In this document: in pieces, positions 3,149 to 47,996 of the stretch | Layout: each line of letters starts with the position of its first letter | How positions within the stretch are numbered: position 1 is the stretch's first letter | Source: an uncultured Candidatus Saccharibacteria bacterium | GTDB taxonomy: Bacteria > Patescibacteriota > Minisyncoccia > Phycocordibacterales > PALSA-1337 | Reading direction: 5' to 3' | Assembly: GCA_964542675.1 (NCBI GenBank) | Contig: CAZIUH010000002.1 | Span: forward strand, 98 to 64,097 | Length of the DNA: 64,000 nucleotides | The notes under the pieces: model-generated | Databases searched by the model: none | What the model saw: the letters and a program-made list of their open reading frames with translations, nothing else | Told to the model about the DNA's origin: nothing | Program-made: the position numbers and the translations under genes

Positions 3149-3182
3149 AACAAAAATCACCCTTTCGGGCAGATTTTTGTTT

Positions 3183-3547
3183 GTGGAGATGCTGGGAGTC
3201 GAACCCAGGTGCAATCGAAGTTGATCGAACGATTCTACGGCGATAGAAATCTTTGAAGTTTAGAAGCCATGTTATGAAAGAAAACAAAACGCATAGCTTC
3301 GATCTCTAAGTTTCGGATAATACGACGAGAAATCGTACTACCCTACATCCAGGTAATAACGCCTATCCAGAAGGTCAGGATCCCCCTCTAGTAGACGCGC
3401 GCTTATACAAACGCGAATGCGAAGTCCTTGGCTCCGAAATACGGAGAAACAGAAGATTTAGCAATTAGGTTTTGCATCGGATTTATAAGTCGATACTGCT
3501 TACGCCGCACGAACAATAACATACGATTGTCGATGCCTTTCATCCCC
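3183..3547 (-). ncRNA. ssrA: tmRNA (transfer-messenger RNA)
   Basis: Minus-strand 5' GGGGATG pairs with 3' CATCTCC, including a G3:U70 wobble (alanine identity). T-arm CTGGG-TTCGACT-CCCAG, discriminator A. P2a-like pairing CAATCG/CGATTG. About 365 nt. Candidate tag ORFs end at TAA (...AKDFAFAFV* or ...AKPNC*). smpB lies immediately upstream on the same strand. Confidence 0.7.
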
Positions 3548-41487: not shown

Positions 41488-43500
41488 TTATTGCGGTTTT
41501 TGGAGATATTCTTTGAAGGCGTCCCAGATATTGGCTGTTGGTATTGTACTTACTGTTGTAGCCGGTTGTACCGTGACTTGCGATGAAACACCAACAGCAT
41601 AGTTTGGATTATCAGACAAATATTCATAGAAGTTCGGTACGATATTTTGAGCCGAAAACGTTGTATTATCGATTCGGAAAACAACGCTTCGTACTGTGGC
41701 TGAATTGAATTTTGTCATTTTGTTGCATAGAGATGTATTGCCACCTATATCACCGATCCATACAGCCGAGACTCCGGACGGACAACTCAAATAAAGCGCT
41801 GATGACACTGCGTTGCTATGTGTAGTGAAGTTCAGGGTTACAGTACTACCAGAATTAACCATTGAAACAGAAGGGGTGATAGAGAGTGAGCCAGTAGGAG
41901 TACTTGAGGTTACGGTAAAGATATGTGTGTTACTATTCTTTCCTATAGTCAGATCAGAATCATTAACCACACTCAGTCCATATGATCCAATCGAAACTGA
42001 ACCTGGAATAGCAAAAGAGATTGTTGAACCGTTACTTGAAGAGGCTAGATAAGTGTTTCCGGCAATTAGAATCCGATTATATGAACCAAAACCTGAACCC
42101 GTAATCGAAACCATGCTTCCTACTGGACCTGATGTTGGATAAATAGAAGTTATAGATGATTGGGGTAAATCTGATATTTTAGGATTAATTAGAGTTACTA
42201 TATGTCCTGCACTTGTTTGACCCGATGAGTTCGTAACATAGACCGCAGGGAATCCAGATGGTAATGATGGAACAATAAATCTTGCAGTTGTACCATATGT
42301 TTCTGTTACCGTAACAGGGTTTGTTGAACCGCCAACTTTTACTGACAACATTCCACTAAGCCCAGTACCATAAATGGTTGCCCAATTATTTGCATGGATA
42401 GTATTTTCAGGATCGCCAGCTGATTGGACATTCGAAATAGTTGGTCTAATTGAAGTTACATCTGAAGCCGTTGTCTGTGTCGTTACCTGTGTTGGCGTAA
42501 TACTAGAAGCAGGAATTATACCTACCGCTTGCGTGCCATCGGTAAATTCCACATAAATCTTTCCACCACTGAACCTAGAACTTTCTGGTTGGCCATATAG
42601 TTTGAGATTGTATGTGCCAGTACCCGTCATAATATTCTGATTATAAACAGTATTCACTTGTGAACCATCACGAGTGACTACAAGTGGATATGGTGTCTCT
42701 TTGTAACCATAAAGATCTGCTCCATCATTCAAGTAACGGGAATCCCCTGTTGACCATACTTCACCAGCCAAATTGTGCTTGACTGTAATACGAGAAATTG
42801 TTTTTTGTGAAGGAAGTGTTACGGTTGCATACCATTGCCAATCATTCGGATTTGAATTTACATTGGCGGCATTTGGACTAAACTGACCCCAAGCACCAGC
42901 TTTGTCTTCTCCAGCATAATAGAGATACGCGGATACAGTAGTGCCGGGAGCTTGGGACGTATCGGTTTTGATATTGGTGCTGGTATTGGTATTAGCATTT
43001 GTACCTGTCAATGAAGATGCTGTACAAACCGTATTGAACTTCGCACGCGTCAGAGGTCCAAAGTATGATTCGGTAATACCATTCGCATTTTGATATCGTT
43101 GTAATGCCGTTACCGTTTGAGAACCATAATATCCCTTCGTGGCTTGTCCAGAAGATATTGCTGGAATATCATAACCGAGTTTCATAAGCCATGATTGGAG
43201 AGTTTCTACATCTATTCCCATGCTTCCTTGTCGTAGATTTGTTGTATATTGATAGCATTTATTACTATTTGTGGCTGTTGTGACTGTCGTATCAGTTGTC
43301 GCTTTACAAATATATCCAGTAGGACAATTTGATATTTGTGCGACGGGAGTACATATATACCCTTCCGGACACGCGGGAAGCACAGTACATATGTAACCTG
43401 CAGGACAAGTAACGGCCTCCACATTCACTGGACTCGACACTAGTACCACGAACGCGAAGATCGCAATCGGTACAAGTGACGAAATTAATATTTTTTTCAT
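41488..43500 (-). CDS. secreted protein: signal peptide, three CPxGYIC(T/K) Cys repeats, peptidoglycan-binding (PG_binding_1-like) domain, Thr/Ser-rich Ig-like C-terminal region
   Basis: MKKILISSLVPIAIFAFVVLV signal. CPAGYICT, CPEGYICT, CPTGYICK repeats. LQSWLMKLGYDI...TVTALQRYQNANGI. 670 aa. Inserted between fusA and tuf. Confidence 0.6.
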   Translation of the reverse strand: MKKILISSLVPIAIFAFVVLVSSPVNVEAVTCPAGYICTVLPACPEGYICTPVAQISNCPTGYICKATTDTTVTTATNSNKCYQYTTNLRQGSMGIDVETLQSWLMKLGYDIPAISSGQATKGYYGSQTVTALQRYQNANGITESYFGPLTRAKFNTVCTASSLTGTNANTNTSTNIKTDTSQAPGTTVSAYLYYAGEDKAGAWGQFSPNAANVNSNPNDWQWYATVTLPSQKTISRITVKHNLAGEVWSTGDSRYLNDGADLYGYKETPYPLVVTRDGSQVNTVYNQNIMTGTGTYNLKLYGQPESSRFSGGKIYVEFTDGTQAVGIIPASSITPTQVTTQTTASDVTSIRPTISNVQSAGDPENTIHANNWATIYGTGLSGMLSVKVGGSTNPVTVTETYGTTARFIVPSLPSGFPAVYVTNSSGQTSAGHIVTLINPKISDLPQSSITSIYPTSGPVGSMVSITGSGFGSYNRILIAGNTYLASSSNGSTISFAIPGSVSIGSYGLSVVNDSDLTIGKNSNTHIFTVTSSTPTGSLSITPSVSMVNSGSTVTLNFTTHSNAVSSALYLSCPSGVSAVWIGDIGGNTSLCNKMTKFNSATVRSVVFRIDNTTFSAQNIVPNFYEYLSDNPNYAVGVSSQVTVQPATTVSTIPTANIWDAFKEYLQKPQ

Positions 43501-43646: not shown

Positions 43647-45791
43647 CTACTTCCTCTTCTCCTGAATCTCCAAGGCCACATTCGCCGGCACCACCTCATA
43701 ATGGTCAAATTCCATCATGGCACTACCCTGTCCCGAAGTCATGGAACGAAGCTGGGTTGTATAACCGAACATTTCAGATAACGGAACTTTGGCATGAATG
43801 GCCAGCGCCATACCGCGGGGCTCGGAACCTTCCACTTGACCGCGCTTGGCGGCGATAGAACCATTGATATCGCCCATGTACTTTTCCGGAGCGACGATTT
43901 CCAGTTTCATAATAGGTTCCAGAATAACCGGTTTGGCGCGCTTGGTGGCGTCTTGGAAAGCTTGAGAAGCGGCAATCTTGTAGGCGATTTCTGAAGAGTC
44001 AACATCATGATATGAACCGAACGTCAGTTCACAAGAAATGTTCACCATCTTGTATCCAGCCACAATACCGCGATCCATGGCTTCATGAACACCTTTTTCA
44101 ACCGCCGGAATAAATTCATTCGGAATAACGCCACCCTTGATAGAGTTTACGAATTCGAAATCATCGAAGCGATGAACGGTTTTCGGCATTTTCTTGTCTT
44201 CTGGCCATGGCTCCATAGGTTTGATATTGAGTTTGACATGACCATATTGTCCTTTACCGCCAGTTTGTTTGATGTATTTGTGTTCCGCCTCCGCCGAACC
44301 GAGGATTGTTTCGCGATACGCTACCTGCGGTTCGCCCGTGTTCGTCTCCACGCCAAATTCGCGCTTCATGCGTTCAACCATGATTTCCAGATGTAATTCA
44401 CCCATTCCAGAAATGATAGTCTCACCTGTTTCCTGATTCGTGGAAATCCTGAATGTCGGATCTTCATTGCCAAGTTTGCGAAGTGCCATGCCCATTTTCT
44501 CTTGATCAGCTTTCGTTTTTGGCTCAACGCGCAAAGAAATGACCGGTTCCATGAATTTGATCTTCTCGAGAACGATCGGATTGTTCTCATCACAAAATGT
44601 ATGCGAAGTCAGAGCGTCCTTGAGTCCCACCGCGGCGGCAATCTCTCCGGCAAAAACTTTTTTTACTTCTTCACGATCATTGGCTTGCAGACGCACTATT
44701 CGGCCAAGCCTTTCTTTCTTGCCCGTCGTGGAATTGTAAAGATATGTTCCCGATTCAACAGTTCCGGAATATACGCGGAAAAATGTTAACTGTCCGACGA
44801 ACGGGTCGCTCTGGAGTTTGAATGCCAAAGCGGCAAAAGGTTCTTCATCCGAAGCGTGGCGAATAATTTCTTCGCCCGTATTCGGATTGACGCCTTTGAC
44901 CGGTGGCATATCGAGAGGTGACGGTAAATAGTCAACGACAGCGTCCAAAACGAGTTGAACACCCTTGTTTTTCAGAGCAGAACCGGTAAATACCGGGAAA
45001 ATCTTATTCTCAATAACAGCTTTCCGAACCGTTTTTTTGAGTTCATCCAGAGGAATTTCTTTACCCTCAAGATAATGACTCATCTGCGTATCATCATGTT
45101 CGACGATTTTTTCTATGAGTTCGGCGTGAAATTTCTTCGCGTCATTCAACAAATGTTCCGGGATTTCCTCTTCACGAACTATTTCGCCCATTTTTCCATC
45201 AAAGTAGTATGCCTTCATGCGAAGAAGATCAACAACACCGTTATGTTGCTCCTCCATGCCGATAGGGATTTGAAATCTGACTGCCTTCAAACTCAAACGC
45301 TCTAATATGGACTTGAATGAAAACTCAAAAGACGCGCCCATGCGATCCATTTTATTAATGAAACAGAGGCGCGGCACATTACCTTCATCGGCATAACGCC
45401 AATTTGTCTCGGATTGCGGCTCAACACCGGCAACGCCGTCGAAAACAACTACCGCGCCGTCCAAAACACGCAAAGATCTCTTTACTTCGGCGGTAAAATC
45501 GATATGCCCGGGAGTGTCGATTATATTAAAACGAACCTTTCTTGAAGTATCCGTAGGCGACATATATGTCGGATTCCAGAAGCATGTGATGGCGGCTGCC
45601 GTAATCGTGATACCGCGTTCTCTCTCCTGCTCCATCCAATCGGTTACCGTATCACCTTCATGTACCTCACCGATCTTATGTGTCATACCGGTATAAAACA
45701 AAATACGCTCGGAAGTTGTCGTCTTGCCAGCGTCAATATGCGCTATGACGCCAAAATTACGCACTTTTTCTAATGGACAGTCGCGATTCAT
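43647..45791 (-). CDS. fusA: elongation factor G
   Basis: 714 aa. NFGVIAHIDAGKTTTSERIL, DTPGHIDF. Confidence 0.95.
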   Translation of the reverse strand: MNRDCPLEKVRNFGVIAHIDAGKTTTSERILFYTGMTHKIGEVHEGDTVTDWMEQERERGITITAAAITCFWNPTYMSPTDTSRKVRFNIIDTPGHIDFTAEVKRSLRVLDGAVVVFDGVAGVEPQSETNWRYADEGNVPRLCFINKMDRMGASFEFSFKSILERLSLKAVRFQIPIGMEEQHNGVVDLLRMKAYYFDGKMGEIVREEEIPEHLLNDAKKFHAELIEKIVEHDDTQMSHYLEGKEIPLDELKKTVRKAVIENKIFPVFTGSALKNKGVQLVLDAVVDYLPSPLDMPPVKGVNPNTGEEIIRHASDEEPFAALAFKLQSDPFVGQLTFFRVYSGTVESGTYLYNSTTGKKERLGRIVRLQANDREEVKKVFAGEIAAAVGLKDALTSHTFCDENNPIVLEKIKFMEPVISLRVEPKTKADQEKMGMALRKLGNEDPTFRISTNQETGETIISGMGELHLEIMVERMKREFGVETNTGEPQVAYRETILGSAEAEHKYIKQTGGKGQYGHVKLNIKPMEPWPEDKKMPKTVHRFDDFEFVNSIKGGVIPNEFIPAVEKGVHEAMDRGIVAGYKMVNISCELTFGSYHDVDSSEIAYKIAASQAFQDATKRAKPVILEPIMKLEIVAPEKYMGDINGSIAAKRGQVEGSEPRGMALAIHAKVPLSEMFGYTTQLRSMTSGQGSAMMEFDHYEVVPANVALEIQEKRK

Positions 45792-45872
45792 GATTTATTA
45801 TGTCATTCCCACGAAAGCGGGAATCCATGATTAAATTGATTTGATAATTAATTACAATTAAATAAAAAAGCA

Positions 45873-45902
45873 GTAGCTGCTTAATATAGATACGATACAG
45901 GA
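45873..45902 (-). terminator. candidate terminator downstream of the ORF6N gene
   Basis: On the minus strand, AAGCAGCTACTGCTT followed by TTTTTTATTT. Confidence 0.4.
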
Positions 45903-45940
45903 AAATGGATAAATAATCAAATTGTATTCATTCTTTATTC

Positions 45941-46492
45941 TTATACTCTCCTTATGTCAAATCTAAGTTTATGCTTCGGTGATATTGGTTTGTCCATAAA
46001 TCGCTTCATATGTGAATATAATTCAGTAAGTCCTATCCCCTGCCGAATCTGTTCCAGCTCCAATTTATCAACTTTATTCGCAAGATCTTTGTTATTTGAG
46101 ATCATTCGACGAAGTTTGACGAATGCGCGCATGATGAAAATATTCATTTGCACAGCCTTATCACTATTCAGAACTGAGGAAAGCATGGCCACACCAAGCT
46201 CGGTAAAGACATATGGCAATTGATGAGAAAATCTCCGAACAGAAAGGTGGTCGCAAATTGCGACCACCTTATTCTTTTCATCGGCAGTTAATCTAAACAT
46301 AAAGTCATTTGGAAACCTAGCTATATTACGTTTTACTTGTTCATTCAATCATTTTGTTGGTATCTGATAAAGTTCTGCCAAGTCAAAATCAAGCATGACT
46401 TTCTGTCCACGGATCAAATGAATCCGTCGTTCTATGAATGCTGGAGTAACTGGCATAATCAAACTTGTTTCAATTATTTTAACTTCTTTCAT
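45941..46492 (-). pseudogene. ORF6N-domain (KilA-N/antirepressor-like) gene interrupted by an in-frame TGA
   Basis: Upstream frame MKEVKIIETSLIMPVTPAFIERRIHLIRGQKVMLDFDLAELYQIPTK, then TGA (46351-46349), then LNEQVKRNIARFPNDFMFRLT... in the same frame. Together they span the complete ORF6N domain. Confidence 0.6.
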
Positions 46493-46617
46493 CGCCACAG
46501 TTTATCAACACAAAACATCCCGTCAATATTGACAGGATGTTTTGTAATTTTAGAAACTATTCACATGAAATCCTCAGTATGCTACAATTAATTAAACAAT
46601 TCAAAAGAAAGGTTCTC

Positions 46618-46734
46618 ATGAAAAAATTCTTACTCGAGCTCTTTGCACCATTTCGTAATCCAAAGATAACTGGGGGCCTACTAATAATCTGTATTATCGT
46701 CTCAATTATCCTCACATGGCTATTTCCGAGATAG
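46618..46734 (+). CDS. possible small hydrophobic peptide (38 aa, 1 TM)
   Basis: MKKFLLELFAPFRNPKITGGLLIICIIVSIILTWLFPR. Followed at about 46755-46783 by a plus-strand hairpin plus T-run. No SD evident. Confidence 0.25.
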   Translation: MKKFLLELFAPFRNPKITGGLLIICIIVSIILTWLFPR

Positions 46735-46792
46735 GATATGGAGATAGGTATACAAAGAGATCAACCAAAGGTCTCTTTTTTCTTCTTTCCTT

Positions 46793-47263
46793 TTACCACG
46801 CAAAGTGCGCGAAAGCCTTGTTTGCCTCTGCCATTTTGTGAACATTCTCGCGTTTCTTCACGGCTTCGCCTTCATTCTTGGAAGCGGCGATGATTTCGTC
46901 TGTAAGTTTGAGATGCATCGGCTTGCCTTTCTTGCCTCGCGCGGCCTCGATAATCCATTTCATGGAAAGAGCTTGCTTGCGCTCTGGACGGACTTCACGC
47001 GGAACTTGATAGTTGGCGCCACCGACGCGACGAGAACGGACTTCCATAGCCGGAGTCGTATTTTTGAGGGCAAGCTCGAATATTTCCATCGGATTTTCCG
47101 TCTTGGCTTGCTCCTTTATAGCCGTCATACAATCATGCACGATTGTACGAGCAATGTTTTTCTTGCCTTCTTGCATAACATAATTCACGAATTTGGAAAT
47201 CTTCACAGAATCATAAATCGCGTCTGGTCTCAATTCTCTCTTTGTTTTTATTTTGCGTCGCAT
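46793..47263 (-). CDS. rpsG: 30S ribosomal protein S7
   Basis: [38 protein letters not shown]... Confidence 0.92.
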
Positions 47264-47334: not shown

Positions 47335-47754
47335 CTAGCTTTTAACCGCCTTCGGCCTCTTATTGCCGTATTGACTGCGACCTTTTCTCCTAGCCTCCAC
47401 GCCAGCACAATCCAATACGCCACGAACGATAGAATATCGCAAACCGACATCTTTGACGCGACCGCCGCGAAGCAGAACCACAGCGTGTTCCTGTAGATTA
47501 TGCCCCATTCCCGGAACATAGGCTGTAACTTCCATACCGTTTGTTAGGCGCACGCGGGCGATTTTGCGTATAGCGGAGTTAGGTTTTTTCGGAGTCTTGG
47601 TTGTAACCTTAGTGCAAACTCCCCTCTTGAATGGCGCCGGGAAAAATATTGGACGATTTTTGATACTATTGAATGTACGCGTCAGAGCGATGGATTTTGA
47701 CTTCCTCTTGAAAAGTTTCCTATGAGTTTTCGTCAACTGATTGATTGTTGGCAT
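47335..47754 (-). CDS. rpsL: 30S ribosomal protein S12
   Basis: [13 protein letters not shown]...PKKPNSA.RK. Start taken at the internal Met. Confidence 0.92.
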
Positions 47755-47996
47755 ATTATTTTTAGACGCAAGTGCGCAAGGCACAGGTACGCAGGTGGCA
47801 AGTTTGAATTCTTCACCGCTTTTAGTTTGAGTTATGGTCCTTTTTAGCCTTGAATATGATTCCCGGCTAATTCTTGACCGACCAAACGCGATTACTCATT
47901 CTTGCCCGTAAATTACATATCCCGAATAATAGTGGGACAGTGGGGATACATTAACATCTGAATAATAATAATGCAAGCCATTTAGGTTCCTTGATA

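Follow-up and report, generated by a model that had tools for sequence, protein, structure and literature searches.

The 1,001-nucleotide (nt) spacer between rpsG and fusA in the stretch of DNA analyzed here, 64,000 nt from an uncultured Candidatus Saccharibacteria bacterium (contig CAZIUH010000002.1; hereafter the window), contains a gene of the ORF6N family that is interrupted by an in-frame TGA codon and carries a perfect palindrome within its coding sequence. Across the homologs of this gene the palindrome is selected at the level of DNA and overrides the peptide it encodes, as seen from covariation between its arms, complementarity at synonymous positions, its use of two reading frames and control segments from the same genes. 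The locus is best explained as a recently inactivated copy of a gene that resides between rpsG and fusA in a Taylorbacteria-like clade of the Patescibacteria, the product of which is a dimeric winged-helix protein that binds the site embedded in its own gene. We consider this joint reading likely. It makes the window copy a pseudogene of a clade-conserved resident of the str operon, and neither a recoding event nor a prophage. It would also give an abundant and functionally unnamed family a concrete predicted function, the sequence-specific binding of a defined palindrome. The features that carry the argument are the following.

43647-45791, minus strand: fusA (EF-G), the downstream flank, from the Pfam annotation of the identical locus L001
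45941-46498, minus strand: ORF6N-family gene, now read as a pseudogene, starting at GTG 46498 or ATG 46492 and stopping at TAA 45941-45943
46244-46270, both strands: intragenic perfect palindrome AAGGTGGTCGCAA-T-TTGCGACCACCTT (13+1+13), encoding KVVAICDHL in the frame called type A below
46349-46351, minus strand: in-frame TGA, replacing Arg at recognition-helix position x34 in K-x34-L-N-x37-x38-V-K-R-N
46793-47263, minus strand: rpsG (ribosomal protein S7), the upstream flank, also from the Pfam annotation of L001

The ORF6N gene and its internal palindrome

On the minus strand the gene order is rpsL (47335-47784), rpsG, the spacer and fusA. The spacer contains a single ORF6N-type frame, reading ...LYQIPTK*LNEQVKRNIARFPNDFMF... 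across the TGA, and this gene is present in one copy only in the window. When the frame was joined across the stop, the 183-aa product matched the Pfam family ORF6N (PF10543) with an E value of 4.3e-29 and 101.1 bits, above the gathering cutoff of 27.8. The match spans the TGA, with residues 23-107 of the joined product aligned to positions 2-86 of the 86-position profile, so the complete domain is not encoded by an uninterrupted frame. An earlier note on this DNA had described an ORF6N gene with both halves of the domain in one frame, split by the TGA, and translation and the Pfam match bear this out.

An AlphaFold2 model of the ortholog P0006 has helices at 23-30 and 34-43 that form a helix-turn-helix (HTH), followed by long C-terminal helices. 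In this model the TGA falls at residue 48 of the ORF6N domain, the predicted start of the second HTH helix. The protein of about 180 aa would thus comprise an N-terminal winged-helix/HTH domain and long C-terminal helices that presumably act as a dimerizing coiled coil. A sequence search for a solved structure returned merely spurious PPAR matches (E 0.02).

The palindrome of the window, which the earlier note does not mention, belongs to a family element, T-NN-CAA-W-TTG-NN-A, that lies between the conserved DFMF and FTExG motifs. A centered perfect palindrome with at least 6 nt per arm was found in 142 of 155 homolog loci, and arms of at least 11 nt in 90, the longest being 17 nt. Equal-length flanking coding segments of the same genes, used as a control, most often reached 4 and never more than 8. 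The consensus half-site is T-N-N-C-A-A beside a single central base, A or T with equal ease, and is usually extended by GAGG or GTGG and TT. In an ungapped alignment of 124 distinct 45-mers, 86.9% of the cells were paired, compared with 66.5% after shuffling (none of 500 shuffles reached the observed value) and 32-41% when the partner was slid. The covariation score of the palindrome was 0.513 versus 0.165, and the five innermost pairs were without a mismatch in all 124 sequences.

Codon phase divides the genes into two types. In type A, with 62 genes, the center of the palindrome is codon position 2 and the encoded peptide is EVVANCDHL followed by LKFS; in type B, with 79 genes, the center is codon position 1 and the peptide is LRSQFATS followed by GRGGRR. 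Each type has fixed offsets to the conserved motifs on either side, and these differ between the types by -2 nt and -1 nt. Between the window (type A) and the syntenic ortholog at locus L167 (type B), the difference is exactly this frame shift. In type B, two pairs of third-position, four-fold degenerate bases were complementary in 78 of 78 genes each. In type A, the first base of the Ala/Thr codon and the third base of the Cys codon formed 39 G:C and 17 A:T pairs with no discordant case (56/56), and the Ala/Thr codon ended in A in all 56. The P0006 model places the palindrome segment at a helix end and in the loop of lowest confidence in the domain, a place that could tolerate two different peptides. 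The family is an unusually clear natural case of a cis-element that fixes four-fold degenerate sites and tolerates two reading frames, and gene finders and dN/dS tests will be misled on ORF6N genes unless the embedded site is considered. Cultured isolates with finished sequences (Legionella pneumophila, Bacteroides ovatus) contain the palindrome as well, and it is thus not an artifact of metagenome-assembled genomes.

Extra copies of the motif were observed just upstream of the start codon in about 15% of the loci, with five in tandem in L167 and two in L023. Tandem arrays of 2-5 palindromes lie upstream at L167 1420-1600, L023 3896-3957 and L151 1984-2097, each copy having its own self-complementary stem; the L167 array contains two perfect copies with the cognate CG core (defined below) and imperfect copies that lack it. 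At L277 3403-3427, on the Legionella pneumophila plasmid NZ_CP048619.1, the palindrome TTAAGGTCACAATTTGTGACCTTAA lies 18 nt past the stop codon of a gene for a 298-aa ORF6N protein. This copy shares the CA core with the internal copy, which indicates that sites can flank the gene on its 3' side too. Seven loci (L039, L043, L069, L153, L155, L156 and L278) have an in-frame tandem duplication of the palindrome segment, e.g. ..LRSQIATLEKGADDETNLRSQTVTS.., giving two palindromes per gene.

We also found the 17-mer GGTCGCAAWTTGCGACC in 87 viral stretches (L172-L258), compared with 14 and 4 for two composition-matched control palindromes; many of these stretches are homologous regions of one phage group, and the enrichment is indicative only. 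Most of the viral matches (81 of 88) were not in or near ORF6N genes, and many resembled bidirectional terminators in having an A-run, a stem and a T-run. As evidence on targets, these matches carry little weight. In the searchable literature we found no description of a function, a DNA target or an intragenic palindrome for the ORF6N family.

Recognition-helix residues and site bases

Each variable base of the half-site was compared with each variable protein column that lies outside the palindrome. Bases -4 and -5 were associated with helix residues x37 and x34 of the K-x34-L-N-x37-x38-V-K-R-N motif, and base -7 with x33. Mutual-information z scores for x34 and x37 were 14-34, versus 4.4 or less for all non-helix columns. 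When the bases were scanned one by one, helix columns reached a z of 53 versus 5.9 or less outside the helix, with weaker values of 6-16 for x33 and x38. The association was seen independently in the type A and type B subsets. The correspondence between residues and bases is specific, as shown by the site cores and the helix residues (x34..x37) that accompany them:

Core CG, helix R..E: 48 of 51 conform
Core CA, helix V/A/T/I..Q: 36 of 39 conform
Core TC, helix N/D..K: 4 of 4 conform
Core GC, helix Q/H/Y..R: 4 of 4 conform
Core TT, helix S/A..L: 3 of 3 conform
Core TG, helix I/N..L: 3 of 4 conform

At base -7, G went with Lys at x33 in 80 of 85 cases and A with Arg in 10 of 20. The rule held in six of six held-out viral and plasmid loci. 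The table amounts to a small recognition code that predicts a target from a protein sequence. The syntenic orthologs themselves also conform, with these pairs of helix and site:

TKRLNEQ with GGTCGCAA (L167)
TKVLNQA with GGTCACAA (L171)
PRVLIQA with AATCACAA (L007)
TRDLNKA with TGTTCCAA (L169)

In the window, TK*LNEQ accompanies GGTCGCAA. This is a cognate pair of helix and site, and the stop hits residue x34 itself.

On a poorly resolved tree based on the remainder of the protein, the site states are interspersed: Fitch parsimony required 34 changes versus 44 after shuffling, and the nearest neighbor had another site state in 45 of 106 cases. Columns between the helix and the palindrome did not co-vary with the site. 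Together, these results make simple shared ancestry or linkage improbable as the cause of the association.

From these results we infer that the intact protein would bind as a dimer, on duplex DNA, to the perfect palindrome inside its own coding sequence. Helix residues x33, x34, x37 and x38 would read base pairs -7/-8 and -4/-5 of each half-site, and in some genomes the extra copies just upstream of the gene would be bound as well. The most likely consequence would be autoregulation through a promoter-proximal operator, an intragenic operator or both, with a private specificity that changes over time. For upstream copies that overlap the promoter, autorepression would be the obvious reading; for the majority of genes, which have the internal site only, an intragenic operator or a roadblock is possible. 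It is somewhat more probable than otherwise that ORF6N proteins of this kind (PDC-S05-like, see below) form a self-contained module of protein and site across phyla, in which recognition helix and site have switched specificity many times along a predictive code. If this is true, the module would be a natural, compact and re-programmable DNA-recognition system. Co-diversification as rapid as this hints that private specificities, orthogonal to one another, have been selected for, as in immunity or kind discrimination.

Several observations weigh against this interpretation. If the palindrome and the N-terminal region are inherited together, linkage could in principle account for the co-variation. 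Upstream and internal copies often differ in their core (L007, L017, L047, L153), so the same protein may not bind them equally. Most of the family lacks an upstream copy and lies in tightly packed operons, so that autoregulation at the promoter cannot be the universal role. In the window itself the palindrome upstream of the gene, with a 2-bp center and a GT core, is only weakly linked to the family motif. Part of the sample was drawn with peptide patterns that overlap the palindrome (e.g. EKKKVVAN), which biases the ratio of type A to type B. Lastly, the outer stem positions are symmetric with no reading residue identified for them, and the formation of a hairpin or cruciform, or the correction of quasi-palindromes, may contribute.

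This last point leads to an alternative in which the symmetry is kept by hairpin or cruciform extrusion or by template-switch correction of a quasi-palindrome, the structure itself being recognized or the palindrome being a small mobile hairpin element. The stems remain perfect to 13-17 nt and so extend past the positions for which a co-varying residue was seen; a single locus can contain several different perfect palindromes (L023, L167, L007); in-frame tandem duplications occur inside genes (L039, L043, L069, L153, L155, L278); and the center is AT-rich. All of these fit the alternative. However, it leaves the near-deterministic correspondence between residues and bases unexplained, and we find it doubtful as a replacement for binding by the encoded protein, with which it is compatible as an added factor. 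The palindrome could also act as an mRNA hairpin, such as an RNase III site, a translational brake or the site of an autoregulatory protein-RNA interaction, instead of as duplex DNA. The RNA fold is strong (-21.8 kcal/mol, z = -6.5), the GRGGRR motif comes right after the palindrome in type B proteins, and the viral copies of the 17-mer are enriched as terminator-like intergenic hairpins. By contrast, the non-Watson-Crick cells of the alignment (G:T 19, A:C 25, other 43) show no wobble excess on either strand, the innermost pairs never mismatch around a center that may be A or T, and additional copies are found outside the gene, ahead of the promoter or start codon and past the stop. Moreover, the co-varying residues are on the HTH recognition helix and form the classical duplex pairings Arg/Lys-G, Gln-A and Glu-C. 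A role as an mRNA hairpin is thus unlikely. Binding of duplex DNA by the encoded dimer would require both half-sites to match the current helix, which would explain symmetric compensatory changes without any hairpin.

Cognate sites in or near the gene of the binding protein are known from other systems. In B. subtilis, parS lies inside spo0J, the gene for the ParB protein Spo0J; a gal repressor operator, OI, lies inside galE; the lambda origin lies inside gene O; and the centromere bound by pSK1 Par is upstream of par. The ORF6N family would resemble these in arrangement. It differs in having the site within the open reading frame (ORF) across a multi-phylum family, where it overrides codon choice in two frames and co-diversifies with the recognition helix. 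Rapid co-diversification of helix residues and operator bases, yielding private specificities, is known from heteroimmune repressor-operator pairs and from C-protein/C-box controllers. The ORF6N family shares this trait, but belongs to another fold family, has its putative operator in coding sequence and lacks partner genes.

The family is very large and spread over many phyla. At an E value of 1e-3 or less, 7,999 of 8,000 scored candidates qualified, and there are at least 8,000 clusters at 90% identity. Homologs are solitary genes among unrelated, diverse housekeeping neighbors: no recurrent partner genes of toxin-antitoxin, restriction-modification or phage-module type were found among 64 upstream and 64 downstream neighbors. 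Apart from the stop codon that cuts it, the window gene has the full Pfam domain and the same size and architecture as thousands of homologs of about 180 aa, which RefSeq names only "ORF6N domain-containing protein". It also matched PADLOC profiles of PDC-S05 (PDLC04856, E 3.3e-54; PDLC04869, E 6.6e-54; PDLC04849, E 6.1e-37), the best match covering nearly the whole protein (177-position model). One PDC-S05 representative, described with a RhuM domain, was reported to make T7, T5 and T4 plate less well on E. coli B (bioRxiv 10.1101/2024.09.26.614923). From these matches the ORF6N protein is a candidate member of a single-gene anti-phage family. The window gene differs from PDC-S05 genes in that it lies in a ribosomal operon, not among the defense genes of a defense island, and in that it is inactivated.

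An interrupted resident of the str operon

We found the 1,200 nt around the gene to be 100% identical in six assemblies from six sample accessions, produced by three pipelines (four adjacent ENA accessions, ERZ272488xx-9xx; JGI 3300028156; Logan SRR8437287). A random sequencing error is therefore very unlikely. Set against this, five of the six sample accessions represent two sources, the four adjacent ENA accessions and the one from JGI, and these may come from one environment. The alignment of homologs has Arg at the TGA column in P0002, P0006, P0016, P0026, P0038, P0056 and P0081. The nearest of these are P0002, with 85% identity, and P0006, with about 70% identity and the codon CGT (locus L167). 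More distant homologs have N, V, D or S at this column, never Cys or Trp. All residues that are invariant across the family are retained in the rest of the window ORF, downstream of the TGA, which indicates that the lesion is recent. Thus, we favor the view that the TGA is a true nonsense mutation and that the window copy is a recent pseudogene. The simplest history is probably that one base change turned an Arg codon, CGA or AGA, into TGA. Translation of the mutant would stop after 47-49 residues, ahead of the DNA-reading helix. The type A protein P0002 (148 aa, from a contig of JGI 3300075153) has an intact N-terminus with the Arg and ends within the C-terminal helices, so that both type A copies in the clade look damaged, in different ways.

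The earlier note had left open a recent nonsense mutation, a sequencing error or programmed readthrough, and had expected the replaced residue to be Arg (CGA) or Trp (TGG). The first option is favored by the identical assemblies, the Arg column and the retained invariant residues. Arg also holds, with CGT in P0006 and CGA or AGA as the presumed ancestral codon, and Trp falls away since it never occurs in the homologs. That note's statement that the other genes of the window are intact under the standard code stands as well, as 48 long ORFs are intact under code 11. Their stop codons are TAA in 27, TGA in 11 and TAG in 10. An alternative genetic code (4 or 25), which the note had thought internal TGAs might reveal, is refuted by this stop-codon usage. 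The only RNA gene returned by ARAGORN and Rfam, in a search confined to the window, was a tmRNA, and tRNA genes were not found. Together with the use of TGA as a stop, this indicates that the organism uses the standard code.

Decoding of the TGA, as selenocysteine, as Trp or Gly, or by programmed readthrough, would leave the gene intact and would fit the domain halves that stay in frame and the invariant residues kept downstream. However, TGA serves as a stop in the window, the residue at this column in homologs is R, N, V, D or S and never Cys or Trp, the window yielded no tRNA gene other than the tmRNA, the spacer gave no Rfam match, and the sequence that follows the TGA (UUGAAUGAACAAGUAAAACGU) is A/U-rich and shows no obvious stem to the eye. 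Further, the truncation of the nearest relative, P0002, fits decay in the sublineage. We regard decoding as extremely improbable. An error of sequencing or assembly in a gene that is really intact has as little credit with us: a single-base difference is a plausible type of error, but the difference is a substitution rather than a homopolymer indel and recurs in every assembly from each of the three pipelines. A working split gene, in which a 135-aa product re-initiates at TTG 46348-46346 or at Met 46300, and in which the DNA palindrome may also still act alone, is unlikely. It would account for the adjacency of the TGA and TTG codons, the intact downstream ORF, the 119- and 135-aa products called by gene finders and the internal palindrome, which is still perfect (13+13). 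Nevertheless, the modeled ORF6N domain would lose its two beta strands, its first helix and the beginning of its recognition helix in such a fragment, no Shine-Dalgarno sequence precedes the TTG, and a recent mutation would leave all of these features intact anyway.

Orthologs occupy the same rpsG-fusA spacer in related genomes. These are P0002 (148 aa, with an rpsG-ORF6N gap of 82 nt), P0006 at L167 (Candidatus Taylorbacteria, 170 aa, intact), P0008 at L169 (180 aa, intact), P0010 at L171 (225 aa, intact) and a 183-aa intact protein at L007. The orthologous loci share a wider synteny of L28, an M50 peptidase, S12, S7, ORF6N, EF-G and a PG_binding protein. Their identity to the window is 84-88% for EF-G, 79-80% for S7 and 57-73% for ORF6N. 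The ORF6N gene thus diverges in step with S7 and EF-G, which fits vertical descent of a faster-evolving resident gene.

By contrast, the earlier note had called ORF6N/KilA-N proteins typical of prophage regulatory modules. We consider it very unlikely that the region is a remnant of a prophage or mobile element, comprising an antirepressor, an operator and a small toxin-like peptide, that was inserted into the str operon. Such a remnant would fit the matches of the ORF6N protein to PHROG anti-repressor families (phrog_4792, E 1.7e-26), the scatter of the family across phyla as solitary genes among housekeeping genes, which implies horizontal spread, and a small hydrophobic ORF in the spacer (described below) that resembles type I toxins. 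The resemblance to phage antirepressors with an ORF6N, KilA-N or Bro-N N-terminus (PHROG 4792) lies in a homologous N-terminal DNA-binding domain; only about the first 130 of the 268 profile positions match, and the window gene has no prophage context. At the locus we found no integrase, repeat boundaries or phage genes, and the 10 flanking ORFs contained no phage families, all being housekeeping genes. At least five related genomes carry this gene at the corresponding place between rpsG and fusA, where it diverges in step with its neighbors, and the peptide ORF is absent from the related loci. The family is also nearly absent from phage genomes. A protein search found homologs in 5 of 50,697 phage records, all weak matches to unannotated metagenomic contigs, and in 28 of 72,556 plasmids, where all are named merely as ORF6N domain-containing proteins.

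At L171 (2455-4290) the ORF6N gene shares the spacer with two others, a SPOUT methyltransferase gene ahead of it and a LysE-like gene behind it. In this clade, accessory genes seem to be tolerated in the rpsG-fusA spacer.

Other elements of the spacer and the window

The remaining features of the spacer are the following.

45802-45826, minus strand: hairpin GGATTCCCGCTTTCGTGGGAATGAC, 10 nt upstream of the fusA start (-12.3 kcal/mol, z = -3.0)
45868-45882, minus strand: terminator-like hairpin AAGCAGCTACTGCTT + TTTTTT, downstream of the ORF6N gene and conserved in orthologous loci
45892-45921, minus strand: conserved non-coding block TTTGATTATTT-N5-TTTTCCTGTATCGT, just after the ORF6N stop, with TTGATT-17-TATCGT
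46499-46526, minus strand: promoter-like site of the ORF6N gene, TTGACG-16-TAAACT with TG, from a consensus scan
46510-46545, both strands: upstream palindrome with 19-nt arms, the left at 46510-46528 and the right beginning at 46527, and one mismatch (95% complementary), with a perfect 12-bp core GTCAATATTGAC at 46522-46533
46619-46735, plus strand: 38-codon hydrophobic ORF MKKFLLELFAPFRNPKITGGLLIICIIVSIILTWLFPR, diverging from the ORF6N gene and converging on rpsG

The earlier note had reported a near-perfect palindrome of 15 bp upstream of the ORF6N gene and had taken it for an operator or a terminator. The palindrome is present and larger than this. The string quoted for it, TGTCAATATTGACA, occurs on neither strand as written, the core being flanked as C-core-A on the plus strand and as T-core-G on the minus strand. 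As minus-strand RNA it folds with -24.3 kcal/mol (z = -8.0), the mismatch becoming a G:U pair. The 3' arm and tail of this RNA are GGGAUGUUUUGUGUUGA, with the U-run partly inside the stem, and the palindrome was not among the hits of the terminator scan. Its half-site, TGTCAA, fits T-NN-CAA, and its GT core is non-cognate (cognate, CG). The center lies 270 nt from that of the internal palindrome, and motif copies sit at the matching position in other loci. The -35 element of the promoter-like site lies in the right arm of the palindrome, with an implied transcription start near ATG 46492; promoter-like sites are no more numerous in the region than expected from shuffled sequence. Because of this overlap and of the palindromes at this place in related genes, the suggested role of operator or terminator is still reasonable. 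We regard the element as a candidate operator, as a candidate bidirectional terminator or attenuator for transcripts leaving rpsG, or as both; the readings are equally good and compatible. Both the palindrome and its GTCAATATTGAC core are single-copy in the window, as is the hairpin GGATTCCCGCTTTCGTGGGAATGAC near fusA, which has one good copy there, so the idea that this hairpin and the core are dispersed repeats was rejected. The hairpin is not conserved in L167, L169 or L007.

The 38-codon ORF corresponds to the opposite-strand peptide gene with its own terminator described in the earlier note, and both the ORF and a terminator-like hairpin with a T-run (46754-46778) were found, along with a promoter-like site at 46560-46588 (TTCACA-17-TACAAT, 10/12 with TG). 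The ORF matched no Pfam family, tblastn found no homolog in any fetched locus except identical copies, and it is not present as a called protein in a collection of 15 billion proteins. Related loci have spacers of 30-390 nt that differ in content and lack this ORF. As a real gene it is unproven.

The conserved block after the ORF6N stop has the consensus TTTGATTATTT-N5-6-TTTyCTGTATyGT. It is kept in the window, L167, L169 and L007, with the TTTGATTATTT run invariant. Among 278 fetched loci, the pattern TTTGATTATTT-N3-12-T[C/A]CTGTA occurred only in rpsG-ORF6N-fusA loci (L001-L007, L167-L170). The hairpin that follows reads AAGCAGTTACTGCTT in L167 and AAGCAGTCTCTGCTT in L169, with the shared form AAGCAGnnnCTGCTTTTTT, and its fold in the window is weak (-5.2 kcal/mol, z = -1.4). 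In the relatives, block and hairpin lie at L167 2193-2260, L169 630-690 and L007 4555-4620. Together they are probably the fusA promoter and the ORF6N terminator. No Rfam match near the gathering score was found at the palindromes, the hairpins or elsewhere in the spacer.

Further downstream of fusA are genes for a PG_binding protein, tuf, rpsJ and rplC. The first of these encodes a 670-aa protein with a PG_binding_1 domain (41488-43500) and sits between fusA and tuf, a pair that is normally contiguous in the str operon; the insertion is also found in related contigs. The tmRNA gene, the sole RNA gene detected in the window, lies at 3181-3547 (Rfam 97 bits), and ARAGORN assigned it the tag peptide AKSSVSPYFGAKDFAFAFV.

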